64,000 nucleotides of DNA from Candidatus Rifleibacteriota bacterium (GCA_900772775.1 CAAGRW010000134.1:6866-70865); one strand, 5' to 3'. Positions 16,395 through 62,731 are shown, numbered from the stretch's first letter. The notes: generated by a model not told the origin, from the letters alone. Numbers and translations are program-made.

Positions 16395-16439
16395 AACGAA
16401 GTGTTTTCCTTTCAAAGATATACTGTTGAGCAACAAAGC

Positions 16440-16477: not shown

Positions 16478-16498
16478 GTGACTAAATAACACTAAAGA

Positions 16499-19334: not shown

Positions 19335-20612
19335 CTAGTCTTGACGGTTACATTCGAGCACGTCTTTATGGAAGACGGTCTTCCACTGAATGTAAGTAAT
19401 CATAGCGCCGCCGACGATAAAGCAAAGAATTAGTAAAGTTTCCATAGCGGCCATACCCCAGCGCTCAGTAAAAACGCCTTGCAAAGCGGCAATAATACTC
19501 ATGGCTCCCCAAGCGGTAAAGGTATTGAGTGAGCCAAAAGCCGTCTTGTCACCTACACTAGGAAACATATCGGGCACACTAATTACTAAGGCCATAGAAT
19601 AAATACGATCTAAAGTCATAAAAATAGCAATGGCCGCTACGGCGGCGGTTAAATTTAATTTGCCATAGATAAAAATAGGCAGCAATACCAATGAAGAAAT
19701 AATGCTTACCAAAAATGTGGAGCGATGGCCAAAGCGCTTCATTATGCTGTTGGTAAAGAAATTGATAAGACAATCGGCTAAACCGATAATCAGAAGGGCT
19801 AAGCTAACTTCTTTAAGATCGAGATGATAATGGTAGGGAAACCAAAGGCCGCACAGAGAGTAAAAGCCAAAGTAGGCCATACGGTTGATGGTTGAGCCTA
19901 TATAGTAGGTGACGGCATGGGGCACGGCCAAAGCCTTTTGGTAAGGCTCGACAATGGCTTTACAAATGGAGAAAAGGCTCTTAAAAGTTAAATTTTGGCA
20001 TAAAGGAGAAGCTTTTTCTTCTTTATCTGGCTGGGGCGCATTGGGTTGGCTCGCTTCGTCTTTGTGTTCGGTTGGATAAAACCAAGCCAGAGCTAAACCG
20101 CTGGCCGCTGTAAGTAAAGCAATAATTAGGATCGGTACACGCCAATTGAAGTCGACCGTAAGCCAACCGGCCAGCGGTACGCCTATAGCTGTGGCTAAGG
20201 GGCGAGCTGACATTAAAACGGCGATCATAGCCGGGAAATAAGCTTTGGAGACGCCGTGGAAAGTTAGGCTCCACATAATGGAAGCTACAAAGCCTGCTCC
20301 CAAACCAGACAGAGCTCGCCAGACTAAGCCCAGCTCGAAGGAAGAAGAAAAAGCGAAGGCTGCTTGGGTGAGCGCCAAAAGAAGCGTACACCAAAAGAGC
20401 AATTTGCCGGGCTTAAACGCCGAAACTAGCGAAGGGCCGAACACCAGACCAGCTACAGTGCCGCCAGTACAAAACGAGATGAATAGTAAAGCAGTGTGGG
20501 CTGGAATGCTGAAGCTTTGGCCAATCACGTCGGCCATGGGAGAGATGGCGTTGTCGATTGAATTAAAAGCAAAAATTAAAATAAAAGCTAAAACGACAAC
20601 GACTCTCTCCAT
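19335..20612 (-). CDS. MFS-family transporter (12 predicted TM)
   Basis: 425 aa, hydrophobic throughout, with an MFS-like pattern and a central cytoplasmic loop. Last gene of the rSAM/ATP-grasp operon. Confidence 0.75.
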   Translation of the reverse strand: MERVVVVLAFILIFAFNSIDNAISPMADVIGQSFSIPAHTALLFISFCTGGTVAGLVFGPSLVSAFKPGKLLFWCTLLLALTQAAFAFSSSFELGLVWRALSGLGAGFVASIMWSLTFHGVSKAYFPAMIAVLMSARPLATAIGVPLAGWLTVDFNWRVPILIIALLTAASGLALAWFYPTEHKDEASQPNAPQPDKEEKASPLCQNLTFKSLFSICKAIVEPYQKALAVPHAVTYYIGSTINRMAYFGFYSLCGLWFPYHYHLDLKEVSLALLIIGLADCLINFFTNSIMKRFGHRSTFLVSIISSLVLLPIFIYGKLNLTAAVAAIAIFMTLDRIYSMALVISVPDMFPSVGDKTAFGSLNTFTAWGAMSIIAALQGVFTERWGMAAMETLLILCFIVGGAMITYIQWKTVFHKDVLECNRQD

Positions 20613-44101: not shown

Positions 44102-46234
44102 CTATTTGGCAAAATGGGGTTGCTCGCCCAGCTCTAGAGTGAGCGTTTTTAATTTGGGACTCTTTATAAAGATGCGAGCATTATCGGCGGCCGTTTCCAA
44201 ATTGAAGCAAGCTGCACCGCGTCTGTCGGTCTGGCCTTGATAAAGAACTTGCCCTTGCGCATCTTCTACACTAAATGGCGACAAAGGTAAAGCGTTGTGC
44301 CACTCGTCCTCAACTAACACCTTTAAGGTTAAAGCCAACTTGGAAGAAGCTGGCGTAGTAGCCTCTTGTACACGCAAGCTAGGCACCGGAGAAGCTGGCG
44401 AAGCCTCGCTCGGTTTCGAAGTTTCCGCTTCGCCCAAATCGATTAGACCTTTTAAAGGCTGCTCTGGAATGGGCGCTTCCAAGTTGTCCTCGTCGGGCTG
44501 GGCCTGAGCCAGGGTTTGGCTGGTGGACGGGCAAGCGGTAGGCTGAGCTAATGTCGAAGTTTGGCTACTGCTAGCCGATAAAGCAGTGGTGCGTCGGACA
44601 CAGTCGCTCAGCTGGACGATTAGCTTATGTGGCTCTCCGCTCTCCAGGCGCATATTGGCCGTGCCTTTAGAAAACAAGCCACAAGCGGTGAGGTTAGCTG
44701 TACCTGGAGAGCGCAAAGAATGCACTTCAAATTCGGCCCGCCCATCTTTAGTAACCACCTGACTAGGGCAGCTCAGGCCCAGCCCGTAAAGCTCGAGCAC
44801 CGTACCGTCGGGCACAGGGTTGCCTTTAGAATTTAAAGCCAAAATGGAAGCTTGGCCTTTGTCGCGACCGTCGCTTTTTAAGGTTTTGGGCAAGTCGATC
44901 TTAATTAAACTTGGGTAAGCGGTGCCGCGACTGTCTTTTAGCACTAAAGCGTCGCCAATGGGACGTTGGTAAGTGCCTGCCTGGGGGCCGTTGCCTACGA
45001 TATTGGGGCCTATAGCCATGCCTACGGAGCCGCCGCCATCGAGGTTGAGCGCTTCAGTCATGCCTTTTTTCTGCAAATATTTGGCCAAGACGGGCAGCTT
45101 CCAGCCTTGACTGTGACTGTCGCGGGCGCCGGATAAGGTGGCCAGCATCATTTGGTCTTTGTTGTAGGCAATAAGGCTGCGACCGCAGGCTCTAGTAATA
45201 TCGTTGCCTTTGGGCCCCAGCTCTTCAGCGTCGGCAGTAATATAAAGTTGGCCGTTTTTTAATAAAGTGGGGCCCGCTCCCAAAGCCATACGCAAGGGAG
45301 GAGTAGGCTGGCCATTGAGGCGCACTACTTGGCCCTTTATAGCTTTAAGGCGATCAATAAAAGGCTGCCCGTCTTTAGTAAAGGCAATCACGCTGCGGGC
45401 GGGGCGGCGGCCTACGTGGGGCGAAATGAGCTTGCCGTCTTTGACTACTAAGCCGAGCAAGCCGCCGTTAGGCATGTTGAAAAAACCGCCGTTAATGCCA
45501 GCAACGGCCCCTTCTTCTTGGGGCACGATCTTGCTTAGCACAGCTACTGTGTGGGGATTGTTGTTATTAGCTAAAGCCACATCTACACTTACATGTGGAT
45601 CGGAACGATCAAAAAGAAGCTGGTTCCAAAGCAAAGTGCCAAAGGTTGGATCTTTGATAAGTTGGCGGCTCCAAGTTATGCCTGGAGAAATTTTGTAAGT
45701 TGAAGGCAGTGGCTTAGGAGTAGTGTCTATATCTACTACCAGGCGATGGGGCTCTTTAAGCTTAAAAAATGAGACTTTATCTGTTTGTAAAGCTGAAGCA
45801 AAATTTATAGTAAAGCGGCTGCGGTTTAAATCGGGCCAGCTAACTTGCCAACTTTTGATAGCTTTGCTTTTGGGGGCGCCTTCCGGCTTTACATTACTTT
45901 GACGGGTATTTATTAAGTCTATAATTAAACTTTTACCTTGGTTGCTGAAACTGTAATCAAAAACTGGCTCGGCTTGGGTATTGAGTACTAAACGCACTTT
46001 AGAGCCGGAAGCTGAATGGCGTATAGCTTCCAAACTATTGAATTTGCCTGCGTCAGAATTGAGTGGCTCGCTAATAAGGCTATTCTCAGCTACAGCCGGA
46101 GTGGCCGCAGCCGGGCGCAGACGATTATTTTCAGCTTTAGCCGCTTGGGCTGTTTGCAAAGTAGTGGGCAACCATAAACCGACACTTAAAGTGGCTGCCA
46201 ATATAAGGATGTAAGAAAAACGATGGCTATTCAT
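44102..46234 (-). CDS. Secreted phosphodiester-glycosidase family protein (NAGPA/DUF2233-like) with an N-terminal AMIN-like domain and C-terminal Ig-like/low-complexity regions
   Basis: Signal peptide. ...GGFFNMPNGGLLGLVVKDGKL... and the hallmark ...ALNLDGGGSVGMA... of phosphodiester glycosidases. Confidence 0.65.
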   Translation of the reverse strand: MNSHRFSYILILAATLSVGLWLPTTLQTAQAAKAENNRLRPAAATPAVAENSLISEPLNSDAGKFNSLEAIRHSASGSKVRLVLNTQAEPVFDYSFSNQGKSLIIDLINTRQSNVKPEGAPKSKAIKSWQVSWPDLNRSRFTINFASALQTDKVSFFKLKEPHRLVVDIDTTPKPLPSTYKISPGITWSRQLIKDPTFGTLLWNQLLFDRSDPHVSVDVALANNNNPHTVAVLSKIVPQEEGAVAGINGGFFNMPNGGLLGLVVKDGKLISPHVGRRPARSVIAFTKDGQPFIDRLKAIKGQVVRLNGQPTPPLRMALGAGPTLLKNGQLYITADAEELGPKGNDITRACGRSLIAYNKDQMMLATLSGARDSHSQGWKLPVLAKYLQKKGMTEALNLDGGGSVGMAIGPNIVGNGPQAGTYQRPIGDALVLKDSRGTAYPSLIKIDLPKTLKSDGRDKGQASILALNSKGNPVPDGTVLELYGLGLSCPSQVVTKDGRAEFEVHSLRSPGTANLTACGLFSKGTANMRLESGEPHKLIVQLSDCVRRTTALSASSSQTSTLAQPTACPSTSQTLAQAQPDEDNLEAPIPEQPLKGLIDLGEAETSKPSEASPASPVPSLRVQEATTPASSKLALTLKVLVEDEWHNALPLSPFSVEDAQGQVLYQGQTDRRGAACFNLETAADNARIFIKSPKLKTLTLELGEQPHFAK

Positions 46235-48338: not shown

Positions 48339-48881
48339 TTAAGCGATGCGCACACCGTCTGTGTTGTAAATACCTTCGCTGATAGTAGAGGGACCATTAA
48401 GGAACATTTCTACTCCGGCCACTTGTTCAGTTTGAGCATCGTCGACAGCTGCCGTAGAGCTTACGGAAGAGGAATGCAAATCGGAAGGTTGCTGTATATC
48501 ATCTATCAGAGCGATAGTACCTAAGCTGGAAACAGCTAATTCTTTAACTTGGTTCTGCGTATTGACAGAAGCTGAAGAAGCATCGGCAATTAAGAAACCG
48601 TCAAATTCACTGCTGGTTAAGCCGTGCTTGGCGGAAGCTGTAGCCGAAGTAAAACTATCAACACTTACAGAGGGCTTAGAATCTGTTTGCTCGGAGGCGA
48701 GAGTAACGGACTCCAGCGAATCGGTATAGGTGAGATCCGAACCGATATTTACTTGATCAAGCTGCTGCTCGGGTTCGACATTGACGGAGGGGCGCTCGCG
48801 CTGAGCGGAAGCTGCTTGACCGTAGCTTAAAGCGCCCGCAGAACGGACGGTGTGCATTCCAGCCAAATTGATCTCGTTCAT
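48339..48881 (-). CDS. Ser/Thr/Asp-rich hypothetical protein
   Basis: GGAGGG RBS 8 nt before the ATG at 48881 (MNEINLAGMHT...). Low-complexity S/T-rich body. Confidence 0.5.
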   Translation of the reverse strand: MNEINLAGMHTVRSAGALSYGQAASAQRERPSVNVEPEQQLDQVNIGSDLTYTDSLESVTLASEQTDSKPSVSVDSFTSATASAKHGLTSSEFDGFLIADASSASVNTQNQVKELAVSSLGTIALIDDIQQPSDLHSSSVSSTAAVDDAQTEQVAGVEMFLNGPSTISEGIYNTDGVRIA

Positions 48882-49345
48882 ATAAATAACCCTCCAAAGG
48901 CTGAGCCCCATTTCTCAGGGTGCAGCCACAAAGACGCAGTCTCGCTGCTTACTTAATCCTTACTCGGAAATATATCTGAAAGTACCCGACAGCCAAACCA
49001 AAAGAGCTGCCAGGCCTATCAAAACTTCAGCCATGCCGAAAGATAACAAACTCAAAAAAGCTTTAAAACAGTAGTTAAAAACTTCAAATGAGAGCTTTTC
49101 GGGCATAGCCGAAAGTAAAATTCTGTTCTTTTGGTTCGCAAGGATATATTAGAAACAGGAGCTCTTAAAGTCAACGAACATAATGGGCCGTTTTGTTAAA
49201 ATCTGGTAGGAAAGGCTGTAAAGGTTTTGCCGCTCAAAAAATAGAAAATCGGCCTCGCGTTTGGTTGTGCAGCCCAGAATAGTTCTTAAACTTTTTTTTC
49301 GGCTGAAAGCAGCCAATTCTTTCGTATTCGGAGAAGGCTAAAATT

Positions 49346-49660
49346 ATGGAGATTACCACTAAGATCGTCCCTCAACCCGAAGTCGGAGGCAATGAAGTTA
49401 CTCTGGCTCTAAACGGGCGCTTCGGCAACAATTCCGCTTCCGAAGTAGAGAGTGCTGTTCAGGAAATTATCGGCTCGTGCCGCAGATTGGTTTTTGATTT
49501 TGCGGGTGTGGATTATATTTCCAGTGCCGGTTTGCGCGTTTTACTTATGGCCAAGAAAAAATTGGGCTCGGGGGTTGAAGTTAGCGTAATTAACGCCAAT
49601 GATGTTGTCAAAGAAATTTTCGATATTTCCGGCTTTTCCAAAATATTGCAAGTTCAATAA
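49346..49660 (+). CDS. STAS-domain anti-sigma-factor antagonist (SpoIIAA/RsbV-like)
   Basis: 104 aa. ...DFAGVDYISSAGLRVLL... carries the phosphorylatable Ser in its canonical position. Confidence 0.8.
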   Translation: MEITTKIVPQPEVGGNEVTLALNGRFGNNSASEVESAVQEIIGSCRRLVFDFAGVDYISSAGLRVLLMAKKKLGSGVEVSVINANDVVKEIFDISGFSKILQVQ

Positions 49661-49690
49661 ATAAGTACCTAAGCTCCTAAACTGAACAAT

Positions 49691-52012
49691 ATGCGCACCG
49701 CTATTCGCAAAAAGCTCTTAATCGTAGTTTCCTTGGCTGCTTTGATTGTCTCTTGGCTGGCTTTGGATTTGGTAGATCGCAACTGTCGCTTGCACGTGAG
49801 CAAGCTATTTAATGAAGCGGGCAAAGATACAGCCCGCGCTTTAGCTACTAGCGATAAACGCGCCTATGATATGCGTTCGAGCATGATGCATACGGTGCTG
49901 ACTTCTTTGGAAACTGTCACTGAAGTAGTCAATTCTTTTCCCGGCATAGAAAAGAATCACGCTGCTTTGGACGGCTTGCGCAGCAGTTTAGGTATCAGTC
50001 GTATCGATATTATCGATGCGGCTCAATGGAAAATTATAGTTAGCTCCGATAAGCAATTAGATGGAGCCCCTGTACAAGTTGACAGGCCCGCCCCTTTGCA
50101 AGATAGCAATCCCGATTTTAGCGCTTTTGTCAGCAGTATGGGCAGTTACCATCCGGTCGATTATGTTACCGATAGACACAATCGCGACTTGTTGCTTTTC
50201 TATAGCGAACTTAAGCGCAAAGGGCGAGTCTTGCGTTTGGGCTTCAATGCCGTCAGTTTTAAAAATACCTACAATGTGGCCGAACACGAGTTGGTAACAG
50301 GCAGCTTGCCGCTGGGCGAGCATGGCGGCGTCGATGTCGTTTCCCAAAATGGTGTGATCGTCAATTGCGTAAATAAAGAATTTATCGGCACGCCCTTTGC
50401 CGAAGTCTACCCAGGGCTTGATTTCAGCCATTTCAAGGCCGGCCAATTGATAAAAGCCAACCGTCGCGGCACGGTGAGCTATTGCACTTTCTACACTACG
50501 CAATACGGCTACATTATGGTGCCCTTTATGCCTGCGGCGGAAGTTTATGCCACGCGAACGACCATTTTGGAAGTTATGCTTACCGGCTTTTTGATTATTT
50601 TGGCCGCTATCTTTTTTAGCACTTCCCGCATTGTCAAAAAGGTTATTCTGGATGGTTTAGAGCGTATCAATGCTTCCTTAGCCAAAATTGAAGCTGGCGA
50701 TTTGGAAGAAAAAGTAAACGAAACGAGTTATCCTGAGTTTTGTGTGCTAAGCCAAGGTATCAATTCCACAGTAGATGCTTTGAAGCAACTTATGGAAAGC
50801 CAGTCGGCCTACGACGCCGAGCAAATGAATTTGGCGCGCACTATTCAGCTCTCTTGTTTGCCCAAGTTTTTCCCCACTTATCCCGAGCTTAAACAGCTTG
50901 ATCTTTGTGCTCGTACTTCACCAGCTCAAGAAGTAGGCGGAGATTTTTACGATTATTTCCGCATTAAAGACAATTTGTATTGCGTCATTATTGCCGATGT
51001 TTCCGAACATGGCATTCCGGCCGCTCTAATGATGATGACAGCCAAAACTGCTTTGCATGATGCTATTTTATCTGGCGATACGCTCGAACACTGTATGGAG
51101 AGTGTCAACTTCTCACTGTGTGAAAATAACAGCACTTGCATGTTCGTGACCGCTTTTGCCGCTACCGTCAATACCGAAACTGGCGAATTTCGCTTTGTCA
51201 ATGCTGGCCACTGTCGCCCTCTGTTGCGCCGTCGCGACGGCATTTGGCATTCGGTAAAGATTGGCTCCGGCATGGTGCTTGGCGGTATGGACAATTTGAG
51301 CTATTCGGCCGAGAGTTGGTTCCTGGAAGAAGGCGATCGTGTTTTCTTATATACAGATGGCGTTACCGAAGCTATTAACGAAAAAGGCGAGATGTTCGGT
51401 TTGGGTGGCTTAGAGGTAGTATTAAATCGCCCTGCTTGCGACAATTACGATCCCGCTTCTCTAATAAATTTAGTGCACGACGAATTGGACAAGTTTGCTC
51501 AAAATTCCACTTTGGAAGATGATGTGACTATGGTGGCCTTGGAATATTATGGCCGCCGCCCTCGGGCTCGTTTCCTTCAGGTGCCGGCTTTAAGTGAAAA
51601 GTTGGACGATGTACTCAACTTTATAGACAATTTGTTGGACGAAACAGAACTTGATTTAGAAACTCTCAAACAAGTAAAAAGCTCTATGGCTACTGCAGTT
51701 GACGATATTTTTACCAATATCGTGAATTATGCCGGCCAGGGACGTCAGGAAACGGTCACTGTCACTGTGCGAGCCGAAATTCAAGCCTATCCTTACCAAT
51801 TGGTCGTGCACTTTATAGATAATGGCCATCCTTACGATCCTACGGCTGTTTCCGCTCCCAATGTAGATTTAGGTTTCCAAGAGCGTTGCTGCGGCGGTTT
51901 GGGCATATTCTTGGTGAAAAAGCTGACCGATCAAATGACTTATCGCTATACGGAAGGTTGCAACATCCTTCGTTTAGCTAAAAAATTAGAAAAAGCGGAA
52001 GAAAAAAACTAG
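49691..52012 (+). CDS. Membrane sensor: TM / extracytoplasmic domain / TM, then HAMP, a PP2C (SpoIIE/RsbU-type) phosphatase, and a C-terminal GHKL (RsbW/SpoIIAB-like) serine-kinase domain
   Basis: HAMP: LERINASLAKIEAGDLEEKVNETSYPEFCVLSQGINSTVDALKQL. PP2C: QEVGGDFYDYF...VIIADVSEHGIPAALMM...FLYTDGVTEA. HATPase_c: ...VRAEIQAYPYQLVVHFIDNGHPYDP...CCGGLGIFLVKKLTDQMTY... Confidence 0.75.
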   Translation: MRTAIRKKLLIVVSLAALIVSWLALDLVDRNCRLHVSKLFNEAGKDTARALATSDKRAYDMRSSMMHTVLTSLETVTEVVNSFPGIEKNHAALDGLRSSLGISRIDIIDAAQWKIIVSSDKQLDGAPVQVDRPAPLQDSNPDFSAFVSSMGSYHPVDYVTDRHNRDLLLFYSELKRKGRVLRLGFNAVSFKNTYNVAEHELVTGSLPLGEHGGVDVVSQNGVIVNCVNKEFIGTPFAEVYPGLDFSHFKAGQLIKANRRGTVSYCTFYTTQYGYIMVPFMPAAEVYATRTTILEVMLTGFLIILAAIFFSTSRIVKKVILDGLERINASLAKIEAGDLEEKVNETSYPEFCVLSQGINSTVDALKQLMESQSAYDAEQMNLARTIQLSCLPKFFPTYPELKQLDLCARTSPAQEVGGDFYDYFRIKDNLYCVIIADVSEHGIPAALMMMTAKTALHDAILSGDTLEHCMESVNFSLCENNSTCMFVTAFAATVNTETGEFRFVNAGHCRPLLRRRDGIWHSVKIGSGMVLGGMDNLSYSAESWFLEEGDRVFLYTDGVTEAINEKGEMFGLGGLEVVLNRPACDNYDPASLINLVHDELDKFAQNSTLEDDVTMVALEYYGRRPRARFLQVPALSEKLDDVLNFIDNLLDETELDLETLKQVKSSMATAVDDIFTNIVNYAGQGRQETVTVTVRAEIQAYPYQLVVHFIDNGHPYDPTAVSAPNVDLGFQERCCGGLGIFLVKKLTDQMTYRYTEGCNILRLAKKLEKAEEKN

Positions 52013-52030
52013 CCGCACTTTGTCAAAAAT

Positions 52031-53323
52031 ATGGCTTCAGAAGATAATTATAACGAAAACAATGTCTCTCCCTTGACGGCGGCTTTGCTTACTTTGCTTA
52101 TTGGAGGCTTAGTCTGGTTGGGAGCTTCATTTTTTGATAATCTCACCAATTATGGCAGTCAGCCCCAGCCTGATCCTGTCAATTTGATGGCTTCGGGCAA
52201 TACTGAAGAAAATTTCTATAGTCCTGGACGGGCCAAGAGACGAGCCAATTTTTTCTTGCGCCGTCAAGGCGACGAAGCAGAAATGTCCTCTGCAGAAAAA
52301 GAACTTTTGGAAGAAGAAGATCGCACTAAAGAGCGCGATAAAGAAGATAGAGAAGAAGCTAGGCAAGGGCAAAATAGCAGCTCCGGTAATGACGACTTAG
52401 CTCAATCTCTCCAAGCTGTGCAATCTTCTGGAGCCGGTTGGGGAGAAGGTGGAGGGACTACTTCCGCTATTAGTCCTGTTTCTCCCGACGGTTTGAAACT
52501 TTCCGGCATTATGTTGGGTAGCGGCTCTGGCATTGCCGTTATCGAATATAACGGCACTTCCTACACAAAATCGGAAGGGCAAAAGATTGGCCGTTACACT
52601 GTGTCCAAAATTCTTTCTGACCGGGTAGTTGTAGAAGATGGAGTCAACAATTTTACTTTGGGGCTTAGCTCTTCCGGAAGTTCCGATTTAGCTTCTTCGG
52701 CAGGCGCAAGCCTTTCTTCAAACGGCCATCCTGTTTTGCCCGATCCCGGACAAGTGCCGCCACCTTCAGCACCGGTAGTAAAAGCCAAAACTGCTTTCAA
52801 AAATGAAGCTTCCTTAGCGCCTTCAGCTCTTTCAGAATACGAAGAAGAAAATGTTGAAACTGCCTCCGGAAATGCGTCTTCAGTGCCTGTGCCCAGCAAA
52901 ATTGATGTTTACGATTTAGCTCAAGAGCGCCGCGCCGAAGAAGAAAAAAAAGCTGACAGTTTGTATGCGCCTAAGGGAGCGGCCAAGGCTAAAGTAAAAT
53001 TGCCTAAAGCTAACCCTACGCCTGTGCGTCCTACTCGCGAAGAAATTGAAAAATATTTGCAGCGCGGCGCGGCCATCATTTCTGAAATTAAAGTGCAACC
53101 CGATGCCAGCGGTTTAGGCGTCAAAGTTAAGTTTGTACAAGAAGATAACGTATTGCACCGTTTAGGCATAAAAGATGGCGACGTTATCACCAGAGTAAAT
53201 AATAAAACTATTTTAAATAGCGAAGAATTGTTTAATTCAGTGCTCAATATTAGCGAAATGCCTTTCGTCAATATTGAATACAAACGCCAAGGCCAAACTG
53301 ATACTTTAATTTACGATTTATAA
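52031..53323 (+). CDS. gspC: GspC-like T2SS inner-membrane protein (TM, HR/PilP-like domain, C-terminal PDZ-like domain)
   Basis: TM LTAALLTLLIGGLVWLGASFF. HR-like LKLSGIMLGSGSGIAVIEYNGTSYTKSEGQKIGRYTVSKILSDRVVVEDG. C-terminal GVKVKFVQEDNVLHRLGIKDGDVITRVNNKTILNSEELFNSVL (PDZ-like). Confidence 0.55.
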   Translation: MASEDNYNENNVSPLTAALLTLLIGGLVWLGASFFDNLTNYGSQPQPDPVNLMASGNTEENFYSPGRAKRRANFFLRRQGDEAEMSSAEKELLEEEDRTKERDKEDREEARQGQNSSSGNDDLAQSLQAVQSSGAGWGEGGGTTSAISPVSPDGLKLSGIMLGSGSGIAVIEYNGTSYTKSEGQKIGRYTVSKILSDRVVVEDGVNNFTLGLSSSGSSDLASSAGASLSSNGHPVLPDPGQVPPPSAPVVKAKTAFKNEASLAPSALSEYEEENVETASGNASSVPVPSKIDVYDLAQERRAEEEKKADSLYAPKGAAKAKVKLPKANPTPVRPTREEIEKYLQRGAAIISEIKVQPDASGLGVKVKFVQEDNVLHRLGIKDGDVITRVNNKTILNSEELFNSVLNISEMPFVNIEYKRQGQTDTLIYDL

Positions 53324-53432
53324 AACGGGCCGCGTCGCTAGCAGCTTTGGGCCGCTACTCATTTAGGCTCACTCAAAATGGACGGGCTTTTTAGCAGGAG
53401 CCGCCCCTTGAAAGACAAATTACCTACGCCCT

Positions 53433-54722
53433 ATGGGTACGTTTTATAAGACAGCTCTCAGCCTGGCCGTTACAGCCGGCATTGGTTTCTCTCTCTGCGC
53501 TCCTTGTTTGGCCGAGCCTTGCGTTTCGGCTGAAGGACGTCTTGTAGCCGCTTCTTACGGCGTGAAAAAATACGATCGCGCTTCCAAAGCTAAAAAGGCG
53601 CCTAATTCAGCCAAGAAAAATATTGCACAAGATCAGTCGGTGCAAGCTTTAAACGAGATGCGTTTAGTCTCGCGTTGGTTTGCTGCTGCTTACGATATTC
53701 CGGCTCGCGTGCCCGAAGAAATGTTTTTAGCTGGCTATACCTATAGCGACGCTATTGTGGCTCTTTCGCTGATGGATGCGGGCGCTTCCTTAAATGAAGT
53801 ATTGGAGCAAAGGCGCAACCATCGCTGGGATGAAGTAGCCGCTTCAGTTGGTATCGAGCCTTCTTCTTTACCTAAGCCGGTCATCAAAGTAATGAATACT
53901 CAAAATGGCAATAGACCTTTAGAGTATGTCCATTTTACTCCCGATGTTCGCTCCGGCTTAGCTAGTCGTTTGCATTTGCCTTCTTTTTCTCCCACTGTGC
54001 CGGATCCCGTAGCTGTCGAACGTTTCCGTCTGTCTAAGAGCGATATTGCCAATATCAGAAAAGCCTTAGAAAATGTCAACGACTTAGATGAAGCCACTTT
54101 GCGCTTGCCTGCCGGTCGCTCTTTAAAAGTGGGCGATTGGGTCATTGCCGGCGTTCTCTCTAAATATAAGCCTTTCCCTATAGATACTATTCTCTCAGTT
54201 CGCACTGGCGAAGTAGTAGAGTGGGGCGATGTGGCCGCTATGTTTAGCGTCGATCCCAGCATTTTTGTAGAAGGCCCCTTGGCTCCCATTTATGGCGCTT
54301 TAGTCGAAGGTGAAAATTATGCTACTTTGTCGAGCTTGCGTCGCTCTTCTTATCCAGATGCCCTTAACAATATCTATGCCTTAAACAATGTAGAAGGCGC
54401 CGAGTTGCAAGCTTTGGGCTGGCTCATGAGTCTCTACTACAAAGAAACCGACGAAGAGAGGGCTTTACTCAATTCTTACGGCCTTTCTTTTGCCGATCAG
54501 GCTTTGTCTTTAGCTGTAGCTCGTATGGCTTTTGCCGATGTTAACGAAATCGCCAACCGTATTCGTCATGGAGCCAATTGGCAATATTTAATCGACTACT
54601 ATAAGTTAGACATGACCGGCCAAGATGTAGTGATGGCTGCTGCCGTAAGTCGCGACCAAGCTCGTTTCCCCGAAACTCCTTCGACAGATTCTAAGTCTGT
54701 GCGCAGTAAGCGCTTCAATTAG
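53433..54722 (+). CDS. Secreted hypothetical protein inside the T2SS-like cluster
   Basis: Signal peptide ALSLAVTAGIGFSLCAPCLAEP. 429 aa with no recognisable family. Confidence 0.5.
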   Translation: MGTFYKTALSLAVTAGIGFSLCAPCLAEPCVSAEGRLVAASYGVKKYDRASKAKKAPNSAKKNIAQDQSVQALNEMRLVSRWFAAAYDIPARVPEEMFLAGYTYSDAIVALSLMDAGASLNEVLEQRRNHRWDEVAASVGIEPSSLPKPVIKVMNTQNGNRPLEYVHFTPDVRSGLASRLHLPSFSPTVPDPVAVERFRLSKSDIANIRKALENVNDLDEATLRLPAGRSLKVGDWVIAGVLSKYKPFPIDTILSVRTGEVVEWGDVAAMFSVDPSIFVEGPLAPIYGALVEGENYATLSSLRRSSYPDALNNIYALNNVEGAELQALGWLMSLYYKETDEERALLNSYGLSFADQALSLAVARMAFADVNEIANRIRHGANWQYLIDYYKLDMTGQDVVMAAAVSRDQARFPETPSTDSKSVRSKRFN

Positions 54723-54730
54723 GAAAGACC

Positions 54731-55144
54731 TTGAACAGGCTGCTAACTAGAAAAAATAGTGAAAGGGGAGGCAAGCTGGGCTTTTCGCTTTTGGAAGTGC
54801 TCATTTCGTTAGGCTTGGTCTCTATGGTCTTCGGCAGCTTAATTGGGGGCTTTTGCCAGCATGTGCAGCGTGTCGCTCGCCTGGGCCCCTTCTATCGCAA
54901 TCTGATCGTGGCTTCCGTAGGTTTGGAAAAAAGCATGGCCAAGAGAAATGACGGCGAGACCGATTCTATAGATGATATTGAATATAAAGTCACCGTCGGA
55001 GCCATGCCTTCCGATCCGCGTATCGACCAGATAGAAAGCAAAGTTAGCAGCAATCGTCCGGGACATAGCGCTGTAGTTAAGGCTTATCGCTTGCGTCAGG
55101 TCAGTTCTGCTTCATCTTCTTCGGGCACTTCTTCCGGCACCTAG
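54731..55144 (+). CDS. Minor pseudopilin (GspI/GspH-like) with a type IV prepilin leader
   Basis: ...GGKLG|FSLLEVLISLGLVSMVFG: Gly-Phe cleavage site, Glu+5, hydrophobic helix. TTG start with AGGAAAG RBS. Confidence 0.65.
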   Translation: MNRLLTRKNSERGGKLGFSLLEVLISLGLVSMVFGSLIGGFCQHVQRVARLGPFYRNLIVASVGLEKSMAKRNDGETDSIDDIEYKVTVGAMPSDPRIDQIESKVSSNRPGHSAVVKAYRLRQVSSASSSSGTSSGT

Positions 55145-55162
55145 TCAGAAATTTTTTTATTC

Positions 55163-55966
55163 ATGTTTAAAGCCAGCTTCAGTGCAAAAAATACAGCCTT
55201 GCTTTTAAGACGACATTCCGGCGGCTTCACTTTGCTTGAACTTATGCTGGTTATGGGGCTGGCCACTTTAGTTTATTCACTGATTTCCTACATGACCATT
55301 CAGATGAATAATACGGTGCGCCATTCGCAAGTAGCTTTCAAACGCCAAGAATTGATTATCGAAACGGCTGAGCGTTTGCGCTGGCAATTGCGTTGTCTTT
55401 ATGATCGCGTACCGGAAAGCTCTTCTTCTGAAGCTCCTGCCAGCCATACCAATCCTCCCACTTTGCTTAAATCGGCTCTCTATGGCAAAAGCCTAGGTGA
55501 AAAAGGGAAAGATGTACTCCTTTTCAAGACTACCTATTTCCCTTTGCGAGTTAAAAACAGCGGTACTGCTGAAGTGGGCTACAAAATTATGAGCGATTCT
55601 TCCGGAAGCTTCTCTCTTACCGAGCCGGTAAAAACAGATGACGATAAGTTGCGCTCTCTGGAAGCTGCCGATTTTATTAGCTCTAATCAAAACGCTGAAA
55701 GTAAAAACTACTTGGCTTACCGGCAGTACCCTTGGGCCGATCCTTTGGGCTTACACGATGTTGGCGACGATAGTCAGGTGCCTTGGGAAAAGTTAAGCTC
55801 AGAAATTATCGGTATGGAAATACGCTTTTCCGATGATTTAGAAATTTGGCAGCAAGATTGGACAGGCGAAGGGGTGCCCAAGTGGGTGGAAGTTACTTTT
55901 GAACTTAAACGCGGCGAGCCTTTAGTCTTCATTACCGGCCCTGTAGTAGCGGCCGATCGCTGGTAG
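55163..55966 (+). CDS. Minor pseudopilin (GspJ-like)
   Basis: ...RRHSGG|FTLLELMLVMGLATLVYSLISY prepilin signal. The start is either the ATG at 55163 or the in-frame TTG at 55199. Confidence 0.6.
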   Translation: MFKASFSAKNTALLLRRHSGGFTLLELMLVMGLATLVYSLISYMTIQMNNTVRHSQVAFKRQELIIETAERLRWQLRCLYDRVPESSSSEAPASHTNPPTLLKSALYGKSLGEKGKDVLLFKTTYFPLRVKNSGTAEVGYKIMSDSSGSFSLTEPVKTDDDKLRSLEAADFISSNQNAESKNYLAYRQYPWADPLGLHDVGDDSQVPWEKLSSEIIGMEIRFSDDLEIWQQDWTGEGVPKWVEVTFELKRGEPLVFITGPVVAADRW

Positions 55967-55978
55967 GGGGCAACGATT

Positions 55979-57118
55979 ATGGTTTTAATGGCAGTTTTGG
56001 GAGCTATTTTGGTCGCTTTAGTTATTGCTGCCAAAATGAGCGAAGTGGGCGTCGACGCCCAAAACCTAATAAACTACACTTCAGCTAGAGAAAACAATTA
56101 CCAGATCGCTCGTTCGGCTGCCGAAATGGGCTTCGAGCTTCTTAAAGCCGACAATGGCGATACCGACAGCTTAAACGATATGTGGGCTGCTGGTTCCGTC
56201 ACTATGGAGTGGGAAGGCAAAAACGTTATCATCAGTATCATTGACGAAGAGAGCAAGTTTCCTCTCAGCGCTATGCAAAAAGCTCCTGATAATTGCGAAT
56301 ATTTGGAAAAAGGCTTGGTGCGTCTTTTTGAAAATGGCGGTTTGGGCTGCGGCGAAGAAGCCAAAGATCGCTTTCTCGATTGGGTAGATCCCGATTCTCA
56401 AAGGCGCAACCAAGGCGGCGAAGTTAGCGATTATGATGAACTGACTATAAAAGATGCTCCGGTCGATTCTTTGCAAGAAATTTTGAATTTGCCCGGTTGG
56501 GATAAAGGCCCCTCGTATGCTTCGGCCCGAGCTCAAAACAGTTTGCAAAGCGTTATGGGATCTGTTTCCGCTGGTAGTTCAGCTACTTTAAGCCAGGCGG
56601 CCGCCCAATCTTCAACCGAGAGCCAAAATACGGCTGCAAGCAATACCTCTGCCAACAACGGCCAATTTAGCAAGTTCGGATCTGACAATTCAAGCCAAAC
56701 TACTGCCAATTCAGAAGATGAAGGCTACAAATTAGATGTACCTTCAGCCCAAACTCAAGGCGGCACTGCCACTACTCCCTGGGAAGAATGGGTCAGCGTC
56801 GATTCTAATGGCAAAATCAATATCAATACCGCTCCCAAAGAAGTGCTTCTGGCTTTGGATGAAAGTATGAGCCAAGTGTTGGTAGATGAAATCGACTCTA
56901 AGCGCCGCTCTGAAGCTTTCAAAAAAGTAGACGATTTGCACAACGTTACCGGCATGGACGCCGATTTGCTTTTCCGTATCCAGGATTATTTGTGCGTTAA
57001 AAGTTCTACTTTTAGTATCGATGTAACGGTTCTGTCCACTCCCGGACGCATAAAGTTGCACAGTGTAGTCAGCCGTGAAAGCGGCGCTATAAAAATTTTG
57101 CGCTGGGAAATACGCTAA
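55979..57118 (+). CDS. gspK: GspK-like pseudopilin
   Basis: Non-canonical N-terminal hydrophobic segment AVLGAILVALVIAAKMSE and a C-terminal helix-hairpin-helix KININTAPKEVLLAL characteristic of GspK. TAGGGGG RBS. Confidence 0.6.
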   Translation: MVLMAVLGAILVALVIAAKMSEVGVDAQNLINYTSARENNYQIARSAAEMGFELLKADNGDTDSLNDMWAAGSVTMEWEGKNVIISIIDEESKFPLSAMQKAPDNCEYLEKGLVRLFENGGLGCGEEAKDRFLDWVDPDSQRRNQGGEVSDYDELTIKDAPVDSLQEILNLPGWDKGPSYASARAQNSLQSVMGSVSAGSSATLSQAAAQSSTESQNTAASNTSANNGQFSKFGSDNSSQTTANSEDEGYKLDVPSAQTQGGTATTPWEEWVSVDSNGKININTAPKEVLLALDESMSQVLVDEIDSKRRSEAFKKVDDLHNVTGMDADLLFRIQDYLCVKSSTFSIDVTVLSTPGRIKLHSVVSRESGAIKILRWEIR

Positions 57119-57416
57119 AAATTTCTTGGCGCTGGATCTTTTTGCCATTAGGCAAAAAATAGGGCAGGAAGGGAAACAATCGGGGAGAACCAAGGCCATG
57201 TAGAATAAAGTCTGCACGCCATATTGTTTAACTTTCTTTATATAACCAACTTCAGGTTCTCTTCACGGAAGTACATTTTTTTTACTATGTGGAGGAACTT
57301 GTTATCTTACATGGAAAAACCGCTGGAAATAAGGCTGATGTTCTCGCAAAGCATCTCCTTGAAGTAAACCCTACAAACTTTCAAAGGTTTTTCTCGAAAG
57401 GGATTTGTTACTAAAC

Positions 57417-58922
57417 ATGACTAACAAGAACACGTTTCGTTTTGCTACTTTCGCTGCAGTAGCCAGCTTAGGTTTAGGCTTGATGATCTCCGGCTGCGGT
57501 GATGGCGGCTCCACTACTCCTAACCCCTTAAACGCCAAATTCGGCCAAGTCACTTTCAACTACAACGTATTGGCTCAGACCACTGCTAGAGCCGATATCG
57601 CTGAAAATATCGCCACTGTAAAATACGTTTTCTTCGGTGTAGAAAATGGCGCTCGCTTCATGGAAGAGCCCGTTGCTTACAATTTCACTCACGGTGAAAA
57701 AGATGCCGAGACCGATGTTACCGTTAAGAACGTCAATCTCGATGCTTCCGGCGTAATCGCTGCCTACTACGACAAAGATGGCAACCTCGTTGCTATGGGC
57801 GAAGATGTTATCGAATTCGATGCCGAAGGTAAAGAAGTTGTCGAGACTCCCGAAGTAACCGACTTCGCTAACGCTACCTACAGCATGACCGCTAGCCAGT
57901 ACGTTATCGCTCCTAAGGACGAAACCGTTATCGGTCTTACCGCCGTTGCCGGTGACAAGACTTACAACGTAACTCCTTTCGTAACCATCAGTGGTATCGA
58001 CGAAGCTATCTTGGCTTATGTCCAGGATACCAACCAAGGCGCTACCTACCAGGGCGCTGAGTACGGCACCATCGCCGCCAACACCATTAAGGCTACTGTA
58101 AACGGCACCGAGTATGCTATCGACAAGCCCATCTACGTAACCGACCAGACCCCCAACGCCATCAAGATTGTGGCCGACCAGGTTGACGGTAAAGACGTAA
58201 CCACCGTTGCCGCTACCGAAGAAGCCAACGAAGCCCTCACCGTAGTATTGGCCGGTGAAAAGAGCATTCTCGCTAACGAGAAAGCCGTAGAGCTCACTGC
58301 TGAAGGCAAAGACGCTCTCTACTATGCCGTAAACGAGCAGCCTATCGCCGTTATCGCTACCGGTTACACCAACGTAGAGGGTAAAGGCCCGCAGCCCGAA
58401 GGTATTGAGAGCGAAATCGAAGACCTCAGCAAGATCACCCTCGTTTCCGGCACCGAAGCTACCGCTAAGGCCGAAGGTTTGAACCTCATCGCCGCTGCCG
58501 AAGGTAACACCGTCGTCACCGCTACTTACAAAGTAGACGACGAAACCACCGTCGAGAGCACCAACAAGTTGGACGTCAAAGTTGTCGGCGCTGACGAGAA
58601 CCTCGCTTTCTCCAACACTGAGACCAAAGCTTTCATGACTGATGTCAAAGTAGACGCTGAAAAAGACCAGACCTTCACCATGGCTGTTGCCGGTAAAGCT
58701 ACTTTAGACGTAGACGCTACTTCTTACGTCAGCGCTCCTATCGAGTACACCGCTGAGGAGTATCCCGCCATCGTAGCCGTTACCGAAGAAGGTATCACTT
58801 ACGCTCAGACCGAGGGTAAGAACGAGTACACTCTCACCGTGGCCAAGACCGCTGCTCCTGAAGAAGCTGTCGAAATCACCGTTGATGCTACTTCCTTCGA
58901 CTCTATCGAAGTTACCAAGTAG
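57417..58922 (+). CDS. Surface lipoprotein, paralog 1 of a four-member tandem family
   Basis: Lipobox LMISGC, then conserved FNYNVLA, TVKYVFFG and AAYYDKDGNLVAMG motifs shared with the downstream paralogs. ATG at 57417; an in-frame TTG at 57405 is also possible. Confidence 0.7.
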   Translation: MTNKNTFRFATFAAVASLGLGLMISGCGDGGSTTPNPLNAKFGQVTFNYNVLAQTTARADIAENIATVKYVFFGVENGARFMEEPVAYNFTHGEKDAETDVTVKNVNLDASGVIAAYYDKDGNLVAMGEDVIEFDAEGKEVVETPEVTDFANATYSMTASQYVIAPKDETVIGLTAVAGDKTYNVTPFVTISGIDEAILAYVQDTNQGATYQGAEYGTIAANTIKATVNGTEYAIDKPIYVTDQTPNAIKIVADQVDGKDVTTVAATEEANEALTVVLAGEKSILANEKAVELTAEGKDALYYAVNEQPIAVIATGYTNVEGKGPQPEGIESEIEDLSKITLVSGTEATAKAEGLNLIAAAEGNTVVTATYKVDDETTVESTNKLDVKVVGADENLAFSNTETKAFMTDVKVDAEKDQTFTMAVAGKATLDVDATSYVSAPIEYTAEEYPAIVAVTEEGITYAQTEGKNEYTLTVAKTAAPEEAVEITVDATSFDSIEVTK

Positions 58923-59022: not shown

Positions 59023-59168
59023 GCTTTATTGTGTGAAGTTTTTTTTATAAAAAAGTAAAAAATGCCGAAAAAAGGACGTTTCTCTTTTGCTGGTGAAAAA
59101 AGCTAGGAGCGTCCGCTGTGAAGCGGTTCTGGCTATTTTTTCTAACGAAAGGTTTTGTCTTTTTACAT

Positions 59169-60842
59169 ATGCTTAACAAAAACACGTTTTGTTTTACTGC
59201 TTTTGCAGCGGTCGCTAGCTTAGGTTTAGGCTTATTCGTTTCCGGTTGCGGCGACAGCGGCTCTACTAGCCCCAACCCTTTAACGCCGACAACTAAAACT
59301 TATAAGGCCGTTTTTAATTACAATGTGTTGGCTGCTTCAACCGCTAAGGCTACTGATATAAAATCCGAAATCGTTACTGTCAAATATGCTTTTTATGGCC
59401 AAATTGACGGCCAAAACTTTATAAACGGCCCCGAAACCGATCCTTCTTATATTCAAACTTTTACTCACGGCGCAGAAGCTGTAGAAAAAGAATTTACAGT
59501 CAATAATGTCGATCCGCAAGCTACTTCAGTAGTGGCAGCTTACTATGACGCTGAAGGCAACTTAGTGGCTGTTGGTCAAAACGATATTTCTTTTAACGAA
59601 GATAAGGTTGCTATCGTAGCTGAACCTGAATTAGACGAAGTCGCTGACGATAGCATAACTTTTACCGCTAGCAAATACGTTATACCTTTGCAAGATACTG
59701 TGCTAATGTCTCTTAAAGCTATAGCTGCCAATAAATAATACGATTTGAGCGCTTTTGCCGAAATTAGCGGTATAGACGAGGCGGTGCTCGAAAAGCAAGA
59801 GGGCAGCTTAGAGGGCCTTACTTACAAGGGCATAAAATATGGCACTATTGAAGGTGGTACTATTACTGCTACTATTGGCAACACTAAGACCGTTATCGCC
59901 GATCCTATTTATGTTACCGACCAAACCCCCTCTGCTATTAGGGTAAAGCCTGCTTCAGTTGAGGGCCATGATATTTTTGCCGATAGTGATTACAATGGCC
60001 AAAAGTATTATATGCAATACGTTGACGAGAAGTGTTTACTTAGCCATTACCCGTACATAAAGTACCACGCCAATTCTTCCAAGAAACAATACGATCCAAT
60101 CTACTATTACATTAACGATCAACCTTTTATCGTTTATGCCACCGCTTACACTTCCGAAGATCCTACCAAAGGGCCTACTCCCACTATTAAAGATGGACAA
60201 ATTGGTATCAATATTACCGACGATCCTAACGTTAAGCTTTTAGATGTAGAATTTTCCGATCCCGAGTATATGAAAGCGCTTGGTTTCAAAATTCAGGCTA
60301 GTATAGTCGATAAAACTAAAGTGCATGCTAGTGGCGTAAACTCTTATAACTATGGTGACGATTACCAAATAACTGCCCAATATGGACAAGGCGACCAAGC
60401 TATAAAGAGCGATCCTATAAGGTTAATCGTCGAAGCTGAAGGCGTGAATAATGAAGTTATTCAGTTTGCGGCTATAGAGGAAGGCCAAGAACCTACTTTC
60501 TTTGTTCCTTATACTATCGAGGCTAAGAAAACTAAGATCGACTTTAAGATGAAACTTATGGGCATTTCTAGTGTGCTTATTAGCTTTGATGGAGGAGAAT
60601 CGGTGCCTTTTTATACCGATCCTTTGGAAATTCCCACCGATGTAATTGCACCTGATCAGTATCCTGATGTTGTCAAGCAAACTGAGTTCTCCAACTTGAT
60701 TTATAAACAAGATGAACCTGGACTTAATGCCTACACCTTAAAAGCTGAAGGTGAGCTGGAAGCTAATAAAATAGTTAAGCTTTACGTTGAAGATGTGGAA
60801 AGCGCTCCGCAATACTCTTTCATATCTATTACCACTTATTAG
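59169..60842 (+). pseudogene. Lipoprotein paralog 2, interrupted by an in-frame TAA at 59736..59738 (the ORF track splits it into 59118..59738 and 59745..60842, same frame)
   Basis: ...LKAIAANK * YDLSAFAEISGIDEAVL... aligns residue for residue with paralog 1 ...TAVAGDKTYNVTPFVTISGIDEAIL... across the stop. The 5' UTR and signal peptide are also homologous to paralog 1. Confidence 0.6.
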
Positions 60843-61117: not shown

Positions 61118-62731
61118 ATGGCTAAGTCCGCCTATAAGAATCTATACGGCTTTACTGCTTTTGCGGCTGCCGCCGGTTTGGCTTTGTGCTTAACTGCTTC
61201 CGGTTGCAGTGATGATACTTCCGATCCCAATCCTTTTGCGGCCAACCTCGGTACTGTCACCTATAACTATACTAAAGCCGTAGCTAAAGCTGCCGAGCTT
61301 CCTTCTACTGCTGTTAAAGCTACTTACACTTTTAGTGCCGGCGACGCTTTAGTCTATACTACCAGCGCTCCTATCGATACTATTACTGACGAAGAAGCCG
61401 CTGCTGGCGAATCGGTTGTCCGTACAGTTACTATCGAACAAGTACCTGCTAGTGCTGACAAAGTTTCCGTTATGTACTTTAATAGCGAGGGCACTCCCGT
61501 TGGTTTGGGCGTAGATAGCCTCGACTGGACTTCCACTACTACAGGTAAAGCCGCTGTTGTAGATCAGCCCGATGTCATAGACAGCACAACTATCGCTGCT
61601 CAAATTGTGGCCAAGCAAATTGTTCCCCAATTAGTAGCTTCCGCTCCTTGCGTAGACAAGGGCAACTACGTTTGGGTAAAGCCTGTTATGGCTTACACTA
61701 ATAGTTTAGGTCAGTCCGTCACCTTTGATCTTAGCGGTTTTGCTACCTATTCTTTGAATAAAAAATATGCCGATCAGCCCACTTATTTAGAAGAAGCCAA
61801 ATATGCCTATTATATGGGCAACAAGGCCGATTCTTTAGTAGCTGACGAAGACACTACCGAAGATGATACTACTGGCGAAGACACTGAAGCTACTGCTAAA
61901 GTAAGCGCTGCCGAAGCTACTCCCGGCTATTATAAAGCTGTTGAATATGGCCAGCAGGAAGTTAGCGTATCTCTGACCGGTTTGGAAGCTTTGGGCGAAT
62001 TGGCTCCTCTTACTGTCTATATTAGCGACGCCAAACTTGCTGGTGTAACTATCGATGGTGAAGATGATGTTTACGTTATCGCTCCCGATTACGATTTCGG
62101 TCAGGAATCTGTGACTGTCTCCGGCGTAAGCACTGCTGCTATTCCTTTTAATACTGCATCTTTCCAAGCTGTCGGCGAATATGTTGGCACCAACGGCCCT
62201 AGCTTCACTACCGATGCCAGCCAGTATGTCAACTGGAATATTGAACAGAGCGAAGGCGTTACCGCTACTCAAGACGCTTTGGGTCACTATGTAGTTACTT
62301 CCAAAGCTACTTCTTTGAAAGATATTGCTATAACCGCTCAGTCTAAAGGTACTTCCGACAAAGTCACTTTGCACTCTCTGCCCGCTAAAGCCGATATTAA
62401 AGTCAATATCGATAAAGAAATGACCTTGGATACCGTAGAAAATGGTACCGTTGAAGGTTTCTTCAAAGTTACGACTGCTGAAGGAGAAGTAGAAACTTCC
62501 AGCTTCAATGTTCCCAACTATGGTAAAGTCAAGATCAAAAATGTCGAGTCTGATAGAGCCGAGAGCAAACCTGAAGTAGCTAAAAATGAAAATGCTAACG
62601 GCATTTACATTAGTCTTGACAAAGAAGAGCCCGGAAACGAGGTTTCTTTCGACGTTATTTACAAAGATGGTAAGAAAATCAACAAGACAGTTTCCACTAC
62701 CGTAACTGTTGTTGACGTCGAAGATGTATAG
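61118..62731 (+). CDS. Surface lipoprotein, paralog 3
   Basis: GAGAGGA RBS. Lipobox LTASGC, with VTYNYTKAVA, ATYTFSAG and VMYFNSEGTPVGLG motifs homologous to paralogs 1 and 2. Confidence 0.7.
   Translation: MAKSAYKNLYGFTAFAAAAGLALCLTASGCSDDTSDPNPFAANLGTVTYNYTKAVAKAAELPSTAVKATYTFSAGDALVYTTSAPIDTITDEEAAAGESVVRTVTIEQVPASADKVSVMYFNSEGTPVGLGVDSLDWTSTTTGKAAVVDQPDVIDSTTIAAQIVAKQIVPQLVASAPCVDKGNYVWVKPVMAYTNSLGQSVTFDLSGFATYSLNKKYADQPTYLEEAKYAYYMGNKADSLVADEDTTEDDTTGEDTEATAKVSAAEATPGYYKAVEYGQQEVSVSLTGLEALGELAPLTVYISDAKLAGVTIDGEDDVYVIAPDYDFGQESVTVSGVSTAAIPFNTASFQAVGEYVGTNGPSFTTDASQYVNWNIEQSEGVTATQDALGHYVVTSKATSLKDIAITAQSKGTSDKVTLHSLPAKADIKVNIDKEMTLDTVENGTVEGFFKVTTAEGEVETSSFNVPNYGKVKIKNVESDRAESKPEVAKNENANGIYISLDKEEPGNEVSFDVIYKDGKKINKTVSTTVTVVDVEDV

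Follow-up and report, generated by a model that had tools for sequence, protein, structure and literature searches.

The stretch of DNA analysed here (64,000 nucleotides from Candidatus Rifleibacteriota bacterium, GCA_900772775.1, CAAGRW010000134.1:6866-70865; hereafter the window) carries at positions 49346-57118 a group of seven genes in which a predicted partner-switching module adjoins components of a type II secretion system (T2SS). All seven open reading frames (ORFs) lie on the plus strand and are tightly spaced: going from the STAS gene to the sensor gene, gspC, the gene of a protein we call X, gspI, gspJ and gspK, the gaps are 30, 18, 109, 8, 18 and 12 nt. A first-pass annotation of the window had described a STAS antagonist and a HAMP-PP2C-GHKL sensor, followed by a GspC-like protein, a secreted protein of unknown type, two minor pseudopilins and a GspK-like protein. 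Its coordinates were borne out, and ORFs and profile searches agree with the description, the HAMP assignment being weak.

The first gene (49346..49660, +) encodes a STAS protein (Pfam STAS, E-value 1.3e-13; TIGR00377, 54.6 bits against a cut-off of 53.45), and the serine in its motif D-Y-I-S-S-A-G-L is invariant in seven orthologues. The second (49691..52012, +) encodes a membrane sensor of 773 amino acids (aa) with matches to SpoIIE/PP2C (1.5e-42), HATPase_c_2 (2.6e-13) and HAMP (0.0086). Specifically, a first transmembrane (TM) segment, an extracytoplasmic domain of ~255 aa and a second TM segment are followed by a HAMP-like segment, the PP2C (SpoIIE) domain and a GHKL domain. The SpoIIE match spans 191 of the 192 profile positions, and the motifs GGDFYDYF, ADVSEHG, LYTDGV.E and DD.TM, including the metal-binding aspartates, are invariant among the orthologues. 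The same is true of the N, G1 and G2 boxes of the GHKL domain, in which HATPase_c_2 covers the full profile and RsbW models match at 1.4e-5. At residues 319-366 the HAMP match reaches 16.8 bits where the cut-off is 25; the segment gives weak matches to the TM2-HAMP parts of NarQ, BarA and WalK, and its conservation among orthologues is 67-97%. Divergence is fastest in the extracytoplasmic domain (39-49% identity among orthologues versus 66-72% for PP2C), as expected for a ligand-sensing input. No Response_reg match was found in the sensor, the two TM segments, the extracytoplasmic domain and the HAMP-like segment making up its N-terminus. We predict a bifunctional protein in which a PP2C phosphatase is joined to a GHKL domain of the serine kinase or anti-sigma type.

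The third gene (52031..53323, +) encodes a GspC of 430 aa, paralogue A. It has an N-terminal TM anchor (by inspection), an HR domain at approximately residues 150-215, long low-complexity linkers and a C-terminal PDZ domain (PDZ_2, 3.2e-6). In NCBIfam three GspC models come out on top, none of them reaching its cut-off, among them TIGR01713 (1.3e-13) and NF041515 (7.9e-13). Pfam T2SSC recognises 11 of 17 members of this GspC family, with an E-value of 0.0034 for the window copy. When a 17-sequence profile of the central ~65 residues was compared with solved structures, the HR domain matched 2lnv (2.3e-5), OutC 6hcg_e (6e-4) and 3oss_C (7e-4).

The last three genes of the group encode minor pseudopilins. 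The GspI-like protein (137 aa; 54731..55144, +; N_methyl 4.6e-4) has the leader ...GGKLG/FSLLEVL and the GspJ-like protein (267 aa; 55163..55966, +; N_methyl 3.4e-4) the leader ...RHSGG/FTLLELM. Both carry the prepilin motif G-F-[ST]-L-L-E with Glu+5, followed by a hydrophobic helix. Their family models stay below cut-off (TIGR01707 gspI, 0.0019; T2SSJ, 0.0062); T2SSJ matches are precomputed for the GspJ orthologues of two related loci (L009 and L010), and the place of gspI ahead of gspJ is kept in all loci. The two proteins are named on the basis of size, order and the T2SSJ matches of the orthologues. GspK (379 aa; 55979..57118, +) is clearer: T2SSK (5.6e-8; PF03934, 33.5 bits against a gathering threshold of 24.2) and T2SSK_1st (9.8e-8; PF21687, 33.1 bits against 26.2) both pass, NF037980 matches at 2.3e-27, and a GspK profile matches XcpX 5vtm at 5.3e-7. 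The 108 homologues found are labelled GspK by their sources. Unlike GspI and GspJ, this GspK starts straight at the hydrophobic helix (MV[LI]MAVLG...) and has no prepilin leader or cleavage motif, in the window as in the orthologues from L009-L043. With the HR structures, the prepilin motifs and the T2SSK domains, the GspC and pseudopilin assignments of the first-pass annotation hold.

GspK also served to place the host. The closest named homologues are those of Candidatus Bruticola (74-75% identity), and a scan of species-representative genomes gave a Hadza metagenome-assembled genome (MAG; L022) with 98% GspK identity as well as older UBP9 bins. Contig CAKUBG010000001.1 of the MAG CAKUBG01 carries the locus with 98% GspK identity. 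Identical copies of the window proteins are present on human-gut metagenome contigs. By these homologies the host is a gut member of Vulcanimicrobiota (formerly Eremiobacterota/WPS-2), class Xenobia, sister to Ca. Bruticola. Among the loci compared below, numbered with the prefix L, a set was fetched from species-representative genomes via an 18-sequence GspK alignment, and all components were mapped on it by tblastn.

Protein X (429 aa; 53433..54722, +), encoded between gspC and gspI, is predicted to be secreted or periplasmic from a Sec-type signal peptide recognised by inspection. It has no Pfam, NCBIfam or PDB match, and a 14-sequence profile compared with Pfam and PDB sequences was also negative. 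Three similar segments of ~50 aa were found at residues 88-150, 225-282 and 340-400, which hhalign aligns with probabilities of 87%, 62% and 53%, as compared to at most 2% for control segments. A single-sequence AlphaFold model (pLDDT 35.8) was too poor for fold assignment. Homologues are present in L009-L043, L085 and L102, and all Vulcanimicrobiota T2SS loci examined have one adjoining gspC or gspI. With only 15 representative clusters out of 1.84 billion proteins the family is very small, and it is seen only in these T2SS loci. Judged by its distribution, X is a conserved lineage-specific partner of the T2SS, a point that the first-pass annotation did not contain.

From their spacing we infer that the seven genes form one operon. 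The sensor/gspC gap (52013-52030, sequence read directly) is 18 nt long, which leaves no space for a terminator, and the single promoter-like match near 52020 has its -10 hexamer inside gspC, 3' of the ATG. A putative operon promoter likely lies in the divergent intergenic region of 434 nt that precedes the STAS gene (48912..49345, strand not assigned), where GGAGAAGG is found 8 nt ahead of the STAS ATG at 49346. A promoter consensus scan gave background counts (8 sites versus 10.7 +/- 2.9 expected) and did not identify the promoter; promoter and terminator counts for the whole of 48800-57500 were at or below shuffle expectation and give no evidence either way. The ratio of nonsynonymous to synonymous substitution rates (dN/dS, window versus L025) is 0.03-0.13 for all seven genes, with X at 0.03, the STAS gene at 0.09 and gspC as the fastest at 0.13. 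Such values indicate strong purifying selection on the whole group.

The core of the T2SS machinery is encoded elsewhere. The other window ORFs of at least 120 aa encode housekeeping proteins (SecA, RF, HisRS, PTS, GDH, IspF) and an SLH protein according to Pfam, and among them no secretin, T2SSE or T2SSF was detected. Prepilin signatures are confined to GspI and GspJ when all window ORFs of at least 50 aa are scanned. The first-pass annotation had likewise reported no GspD, GspE, GspF or GspG in the 64 kb. This absence extends to the source contigs: nothing T2SS-like, and no gspD, gspE, gspF or gspG, lies within 10 kb past either window end. Small genes upstream beyond the window (L005, 16.4-21.2 kb) were suspected to be pilins and turned out to be lipoproteins without prepilin motifs.

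In 13 loci of environmental or deep-branching Vulcanimicrobiota (L009, L031-L035, L037-L043) the genes gspI-J-K-L-M-N-D-E-F are contiguous. The shortest of these loci end in gspD; in addition, L036 breaks off past gspM and L085 covers the gspC-X-I-J end only. X lies directly 5' of gspI, mostly in divergent orientation, and is followed by gspC and a conserved TPR gene. The TPR protein has ~720 aa (L009, 4552-6711; counterparts in L031, L033-L035, L037-L041, L085 and L102), its gene is convergent on gspC, and its C-terminus gives a weak match to an adenylate/guanylate cyclase domain (E 0.015). Gene order across the phylum points to an ancestral state with a single X-I-J-K-L-M-N-D-E-F cluster and gspC and the TPR gene alongside. 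In the clade with the partner switch, the TPR gene is missing from its position next to gspC, and it may have been exchanged for the STAS/sensor cassette in a swap of regulators.

Core loci were sought in two rounds, seeded first by the L009 secretin and next by one from the gut clade. In several lineages of the gut clade, including Ca. Bruticola, separate loci with gspC2 and gspL-M-N-D-E-F were found beside the suf operon (L012-L021, L104). In one relative both modules are present on a 26.6-kb contig (SRR5891506_3747), mutually inverted and with suf genes between them. L104 contains gspC2, GspL, GspM, GspN, the secretin GspD, the ATPase GspE and the platform protein GspF. Its GC content is 44.5% and its tetranucleotide correlation with the window is 0.951, where window-internal controls give 0.957-0.963 and Bruticola 0.787. 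Moreover, its secretin and that of Bruticola share 82% identity, which fits how far the window genes have diverged from Bruticola. Because of composition and parallel divergence, L104 is assigned to the lineage of the window. P0237 and L016-L021, the first abundant human-gut core locus to be found, were also considered as the core locus of the window and were ruled out by a GC content of 57% and a tetranucleotide correlation of 0.165; L016-L021 fit the species of L027 (correlation 0.94). Downstream of gspF, L016-L021 carry at 15434-19928 (-) a SpoIIE/PP2C gene of 390 codons between two [FeFe]-hydrogenase-like genes, one with a PAS domain. This gene of a 57%-GC gut species is a second PP2C signalling gene close to a T2SS and is probably part of a sensory-hydrogenase unit.

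The core loci contain a second GspC paralogue that the first-pass annotation had not reported (HR and PDZ, ~310-340 aa; L104 6144-7112, L016 6347-7288 and L012 6184-7197, all minus strand). In the gut clade its gene is divergent and adjoins gspL. Both paralogues stand in tandem in the unsplit clusters of two deep-branching genomes, L031 (5772-6734 and 6746-7627, -) and L035, and the T2SS of the phylum therefore seems to use two GspC proteins. The first-pass annotation had left two options for the module of GspC and the minor pseudopilins, namely that this tip module has its genes away from the core machine or that it has been co-opted. Core loci in gut relatives, L104 and the contig with both modules speak for the former: as far as gene content can tell, the tip module and a complete core are encoded at separate sites, and the module is neither orphan nor co-opted.

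Seven species-level genomes (L022, L023, L025, L026, L027, L028, L029) retain the order STAS, PP2C-GHKL, gspC, X, I, J, K. They comprise three human-gut species, Ca. Bruticola, a BRZ_DV bin and two goat-rumen MAGs, and the hosts represented are human, baboon and goat. Across them the identity of the sensor falls from 96% to 55%, the sensor/gspC gap is 10-109 nt throughout, and none of the genomes examined has an interrupted ORF among the seven. In JGI metagenomes no close sensor orthologues were found; relatives there are only 27-41% identical and stand in other contexts. Among 80 distant PP2C(-GHKL) metagenome loci, 52 have a fused GHKL domain, 39 a STAS gene and none a T2SS gene. Because the cassette is absent from sister gut lineages and environmental relatives, and distant loci often have STAS and never T2SS genes, the distribution argues that it is a widespread mobile regulatory unit that was recruited once next to gspC and retained since.

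Parts of this arrangement are familiar from other bacteria. Scattered T2SS loci, PP2C-kinase fusions with an adjacent STAS gene, and a partner switch at a type III secretion locus are already known. In comparison with the canonical Gsp/Pul/Xcp operon (gspC-D-E-F-G-H-I-J-K-L-M-N-O), the GspC with TM, HR and PDZ, the prepilin-type GspI and GspJ and the GspK with both T2SSK domains are alike, and the lineage also has GspL and GspM, a GspD with the N0 domain, the GspE ATPase and the GspF platform. It differs in the order X-I-J-K-L-M-N-D-E-F instead of C to O, in the split over at least two loci in the gut clade, in having two GspC paralogues and no gspG, gspH or gspO near either locus (~29 loci), in the leaderless GspK, and in the extra conserved component X without known family. 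The Lsp T2SS of Legionella pneumophila is dispersed as well, with lspC in an operon of two genes alongside a secreted protein, and lspFGHIJK elsewhere (PMC6617341). However, no partner-switch genes are reported at the lsp loci, and in our case I-J-K rather than F-K travel with gspC.

Regarding the switch itself, HsbR/HsbA of Pseudomonas aeruginosa and CrsR/CrsA of Shewanella oneidensis likewise combine PP2C with a GHKL kinase/anti-sigma domain in one polypeptide that acts on a STAS protein encoded adjacently (PMC6482189). The order PP2C then GHKL and the separate neighbouring STAS antagonist are shared with the window. In contrast, the input of these proteins is a receiver domain fed by a phosphorelay instead of two TM segments, an extracytoplasmic domain and a HAMP-like segment, and the outputs known for them, FlgM/FliA, HsbD and RpoS, do not include a secretion system. 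A precedent for a PP2C, a serine kinase and a STAS protein encoded at a secretion locus is Bordetella BtrU/W/V; through serine phosphorylation and its reversal they are needed for type III secretion, by a post-transcriptional route that is unresolved (PMC7498569). Unlike here, that system is type III, consists of three separate proteins with a cytoplasmic phosphatase and belongs to a proteobacterial pathogen. SiaA of the Pseudomonas SiaA/SiaB/SiaC system is a membrane HAMP-PP2C sensor, and its model NF038263 matches the window sensor at 1.8e-13. At 49.9 bits against a cut-off of 700 the sensor is ruled out as a SiaA orthologue, and the output of that system is a diguanylate cyclase without a T2SS link. 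SypE of Vibrio fischeri has both a kinase and a PP2C activity towards the STAS protein SypA, with polysaccharide as the output, and we know of no T2SS link in this case. The literature searched contained no partner switching linked to T2SS, no T2SS described in Eremiobacterota and no protein X. This agrees with the view of the first-pass annotation that the arrangement has not been described for canonical T2SS, the scattering of loci being known (PMC6617341).

We consider it probable that the region 49346-57118 and at least two further loci, separate from it and from each other, jointly encode a split but complete T2SS, with a switch linked at the operon level that adjusts secretion. The operon-like link proposed in the first-pass annotation stands and is conserved in a sub-clade; that expression is wired to the switch is what we infer from this link, and regulatory coupling of switch and T2SS is plausible. 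The seven genes would be co-transcribed as a single operon. The sensor would detect an outside signal through its variable extracytoplasmic domain and HAMP and would switch between kinase and phosphatase activity, changing the phosphorylation state of the conserved STAS serine; the STAS protein or the GHKL domain would then adjust T2SS output. There are two ways in which this could occur. The GHKL domain may bind a sigma factor, in the way that its counterpart in HsbR/CrsR binds RpoS, or the STAS protein may act post-translationally on assembly or secretion, as BtrU/W/V do for type III secretion. Since no sigma factor is encoded nearby, both routes stand. A more specific version, which we regard as doubtful, is that the switch gates the T2SS directly, the STAS protein binding GspE, GspL or the N-terminus of GspC and so licensing assembly of the tip or pseudopilus, and that X is a novel structural component of a Terrabacteria-type T2SS. 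If this were true, a gut commensal from an uncultured phylum would possess a T2SS variant whose control is post-translational and signal-dependent.

Several observations weigh against the coupling. Gut relatives with 47-62% GspK identity (L010, L011, L030, L102) have X-I-J-K without the cassette, so that the T2SS as such can do without the switch. All environmental relatives are without the cassette as well. Since upstream synteny (IspF and its neighbours) extends over most of the seven cassette-bearing genomes, some of the conservation is plain descent. No sigma-factor domain or other output partner was found in window ORFs of at least 120 aa or at the locus in the seven genomes, and co-transcription of the seven genes is deduced from spacing. 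For the completeness of the machine, what ties L104 to the species of the window is its composition and its parallel divergence rather than a contig in common. In addition, gspG, gspH and gspO were not located, and the window, its flanks and ~29 loci of the phylum contain no further prepilin-type ORF. Because these three genes are missing from all those loci, including the environmental relatives examined, their location elsewhere would be a phylum-wide habit and not a peculiarity of the window. The principal alternative takes the genes as neighbours only: the cassette would be an ordinary partner-switch regulator of stress or lifestyle, acting on a sigma factor, biofilm or motility, and kept in place by descent with no secretion role. 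The cassette-free sister lineages, the wider synteny and the T2SS-free cassettes among the 80 distant loci all suit this explanation, and the known PP2C-kinase fusions HsbR and CrsR act on sigma factors and cyclic di-GMP, not on secretion machines. Nevertheless, the adjacency persists down to 55% identity across human, baboon and goat rumen, with co-directional genes and gaps of 10-109 nt. In L027 the upstream neighbourhood is different and the seven-gene block is intact. The cassette also holds the gspC-adjacent place of the ancestral TPR gene, and the 18-nt gap is without a terminator. Mere proximity is in our opinion possible, if on the unlikely side; in that case the finding would shrink to a lineage-specific rearrangement of known genes.

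Co-option is the second option of the first-pass annotation, in which GspC-A, X and GspI/J/K are uncoupled from the core and serve another envelope structure under the switch. The physical separation from a core locus that has its own GspC paralogue could be read in this way, as could the long low-complexity inserts gained by GspC-A and its high dN/dS within the group. Against this, the same genes are contiguous with L-M-N-D-E-F in environmental relatives, there is only one I/J/K set per locus family, and both GspC paralogues were already together in the unsplit L031 and L035. GspC-A also keeps the HR domain, the secretin-binding part in canonical systems, and the surroundings of the module, in the window and its 10-kb flanks, contain no ATPase, platform or secretin that could serve as an alternative. 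We therefore hold co-option to be very improbable. Even less credit can be given to a decaying remnant of a T2SS being lost in the course of gut adaptation. The cluster is indeed fragmented as compared to environmental relatives and one downstream lipoprotein gene has a nonsense change, but the seven ORFs are intact, their dN/dS is low, and intact core loci are present in the same lineages. Co-option and decay are both contradicted by the contiguity of the ancestral cluster, the retention of the HR domain and the purifying selection, and for the remnant we leave practically no probability.

A split but complete T2SS with a linked switch deserves attention for the following reasons. Post-transcriptional on/off control of T2SS is poorly understood, and a conserved link at the operon level is a testable candidate that offers a defined sensor, a predicted phospho-serine and few possible targets. 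Related gut species keep the arrangement, which hints at an undescribed control of secretion. In addition, the make-up and evolution of the T2SS of Vulcanimicrobiota, including gut Xenobia, are documented here apparently for the first time: the gene order, the two GspC proteins, the lineage-restricted X, the split of the cluster on entry into the gut clade, and an adjoining array of lipoproteins that may be cargo.

These paralogous lipoprotein genes start 286 nt after gspK (57405-58922, 59118-60842, 61118-62731 and 62896 to past the window end, all +) and have the lipoboxes ISGC, VSGC and ASGC. Homologues follow gspK in L022-L027 and L029, whereas L028 stops 67 nt past gspK and is uninformative. 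The first copy diverges faster than the genes upstream: it is 92%, 67% and 48% identical where GspK is 98%, 96% and 95%, and its dN/dS is 0.26 versus the 0.03-0.13 of the seven-gene block. In the second copy, T at 59736 (TAA) replaces the G (GAA) of the near-identical metagenome contigs L001-L004, splitting a 574-aa lipoprotein into ORFs of 206 and 365 aa. The window has two mismatches to these contigs across an overlap of 12.9 kb, and the stop is due either to a nonsense mutation specific to the strain or to an error in sequencing. The lipoproteins are tied to the locus by position and may be surface antigens or candidate T2SS cargo.

Elsewhere in the window, an 820-aa protein with an N-terminal SLH domain is encoded at 11572-14034 (-). 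It is consistent with outer-membrane tethering as in diderm Terrabacteria and bears on how a secretin-based T2SS would be placed in the envelope. A HicB antitoxin (Pfam 3e-13) is encoded at 10826-11203 (+) and is adjoined by a small HicA-like gene according to source-contig calls. The genes surrounding HicB differ between strains, and L008 has a DNA methylase in place of the SLH gene. At 44102-46234 (-) lies the gene for a 710-aa protein with AMIN and phosphodiester-glycosidase (NAGPA) domains.

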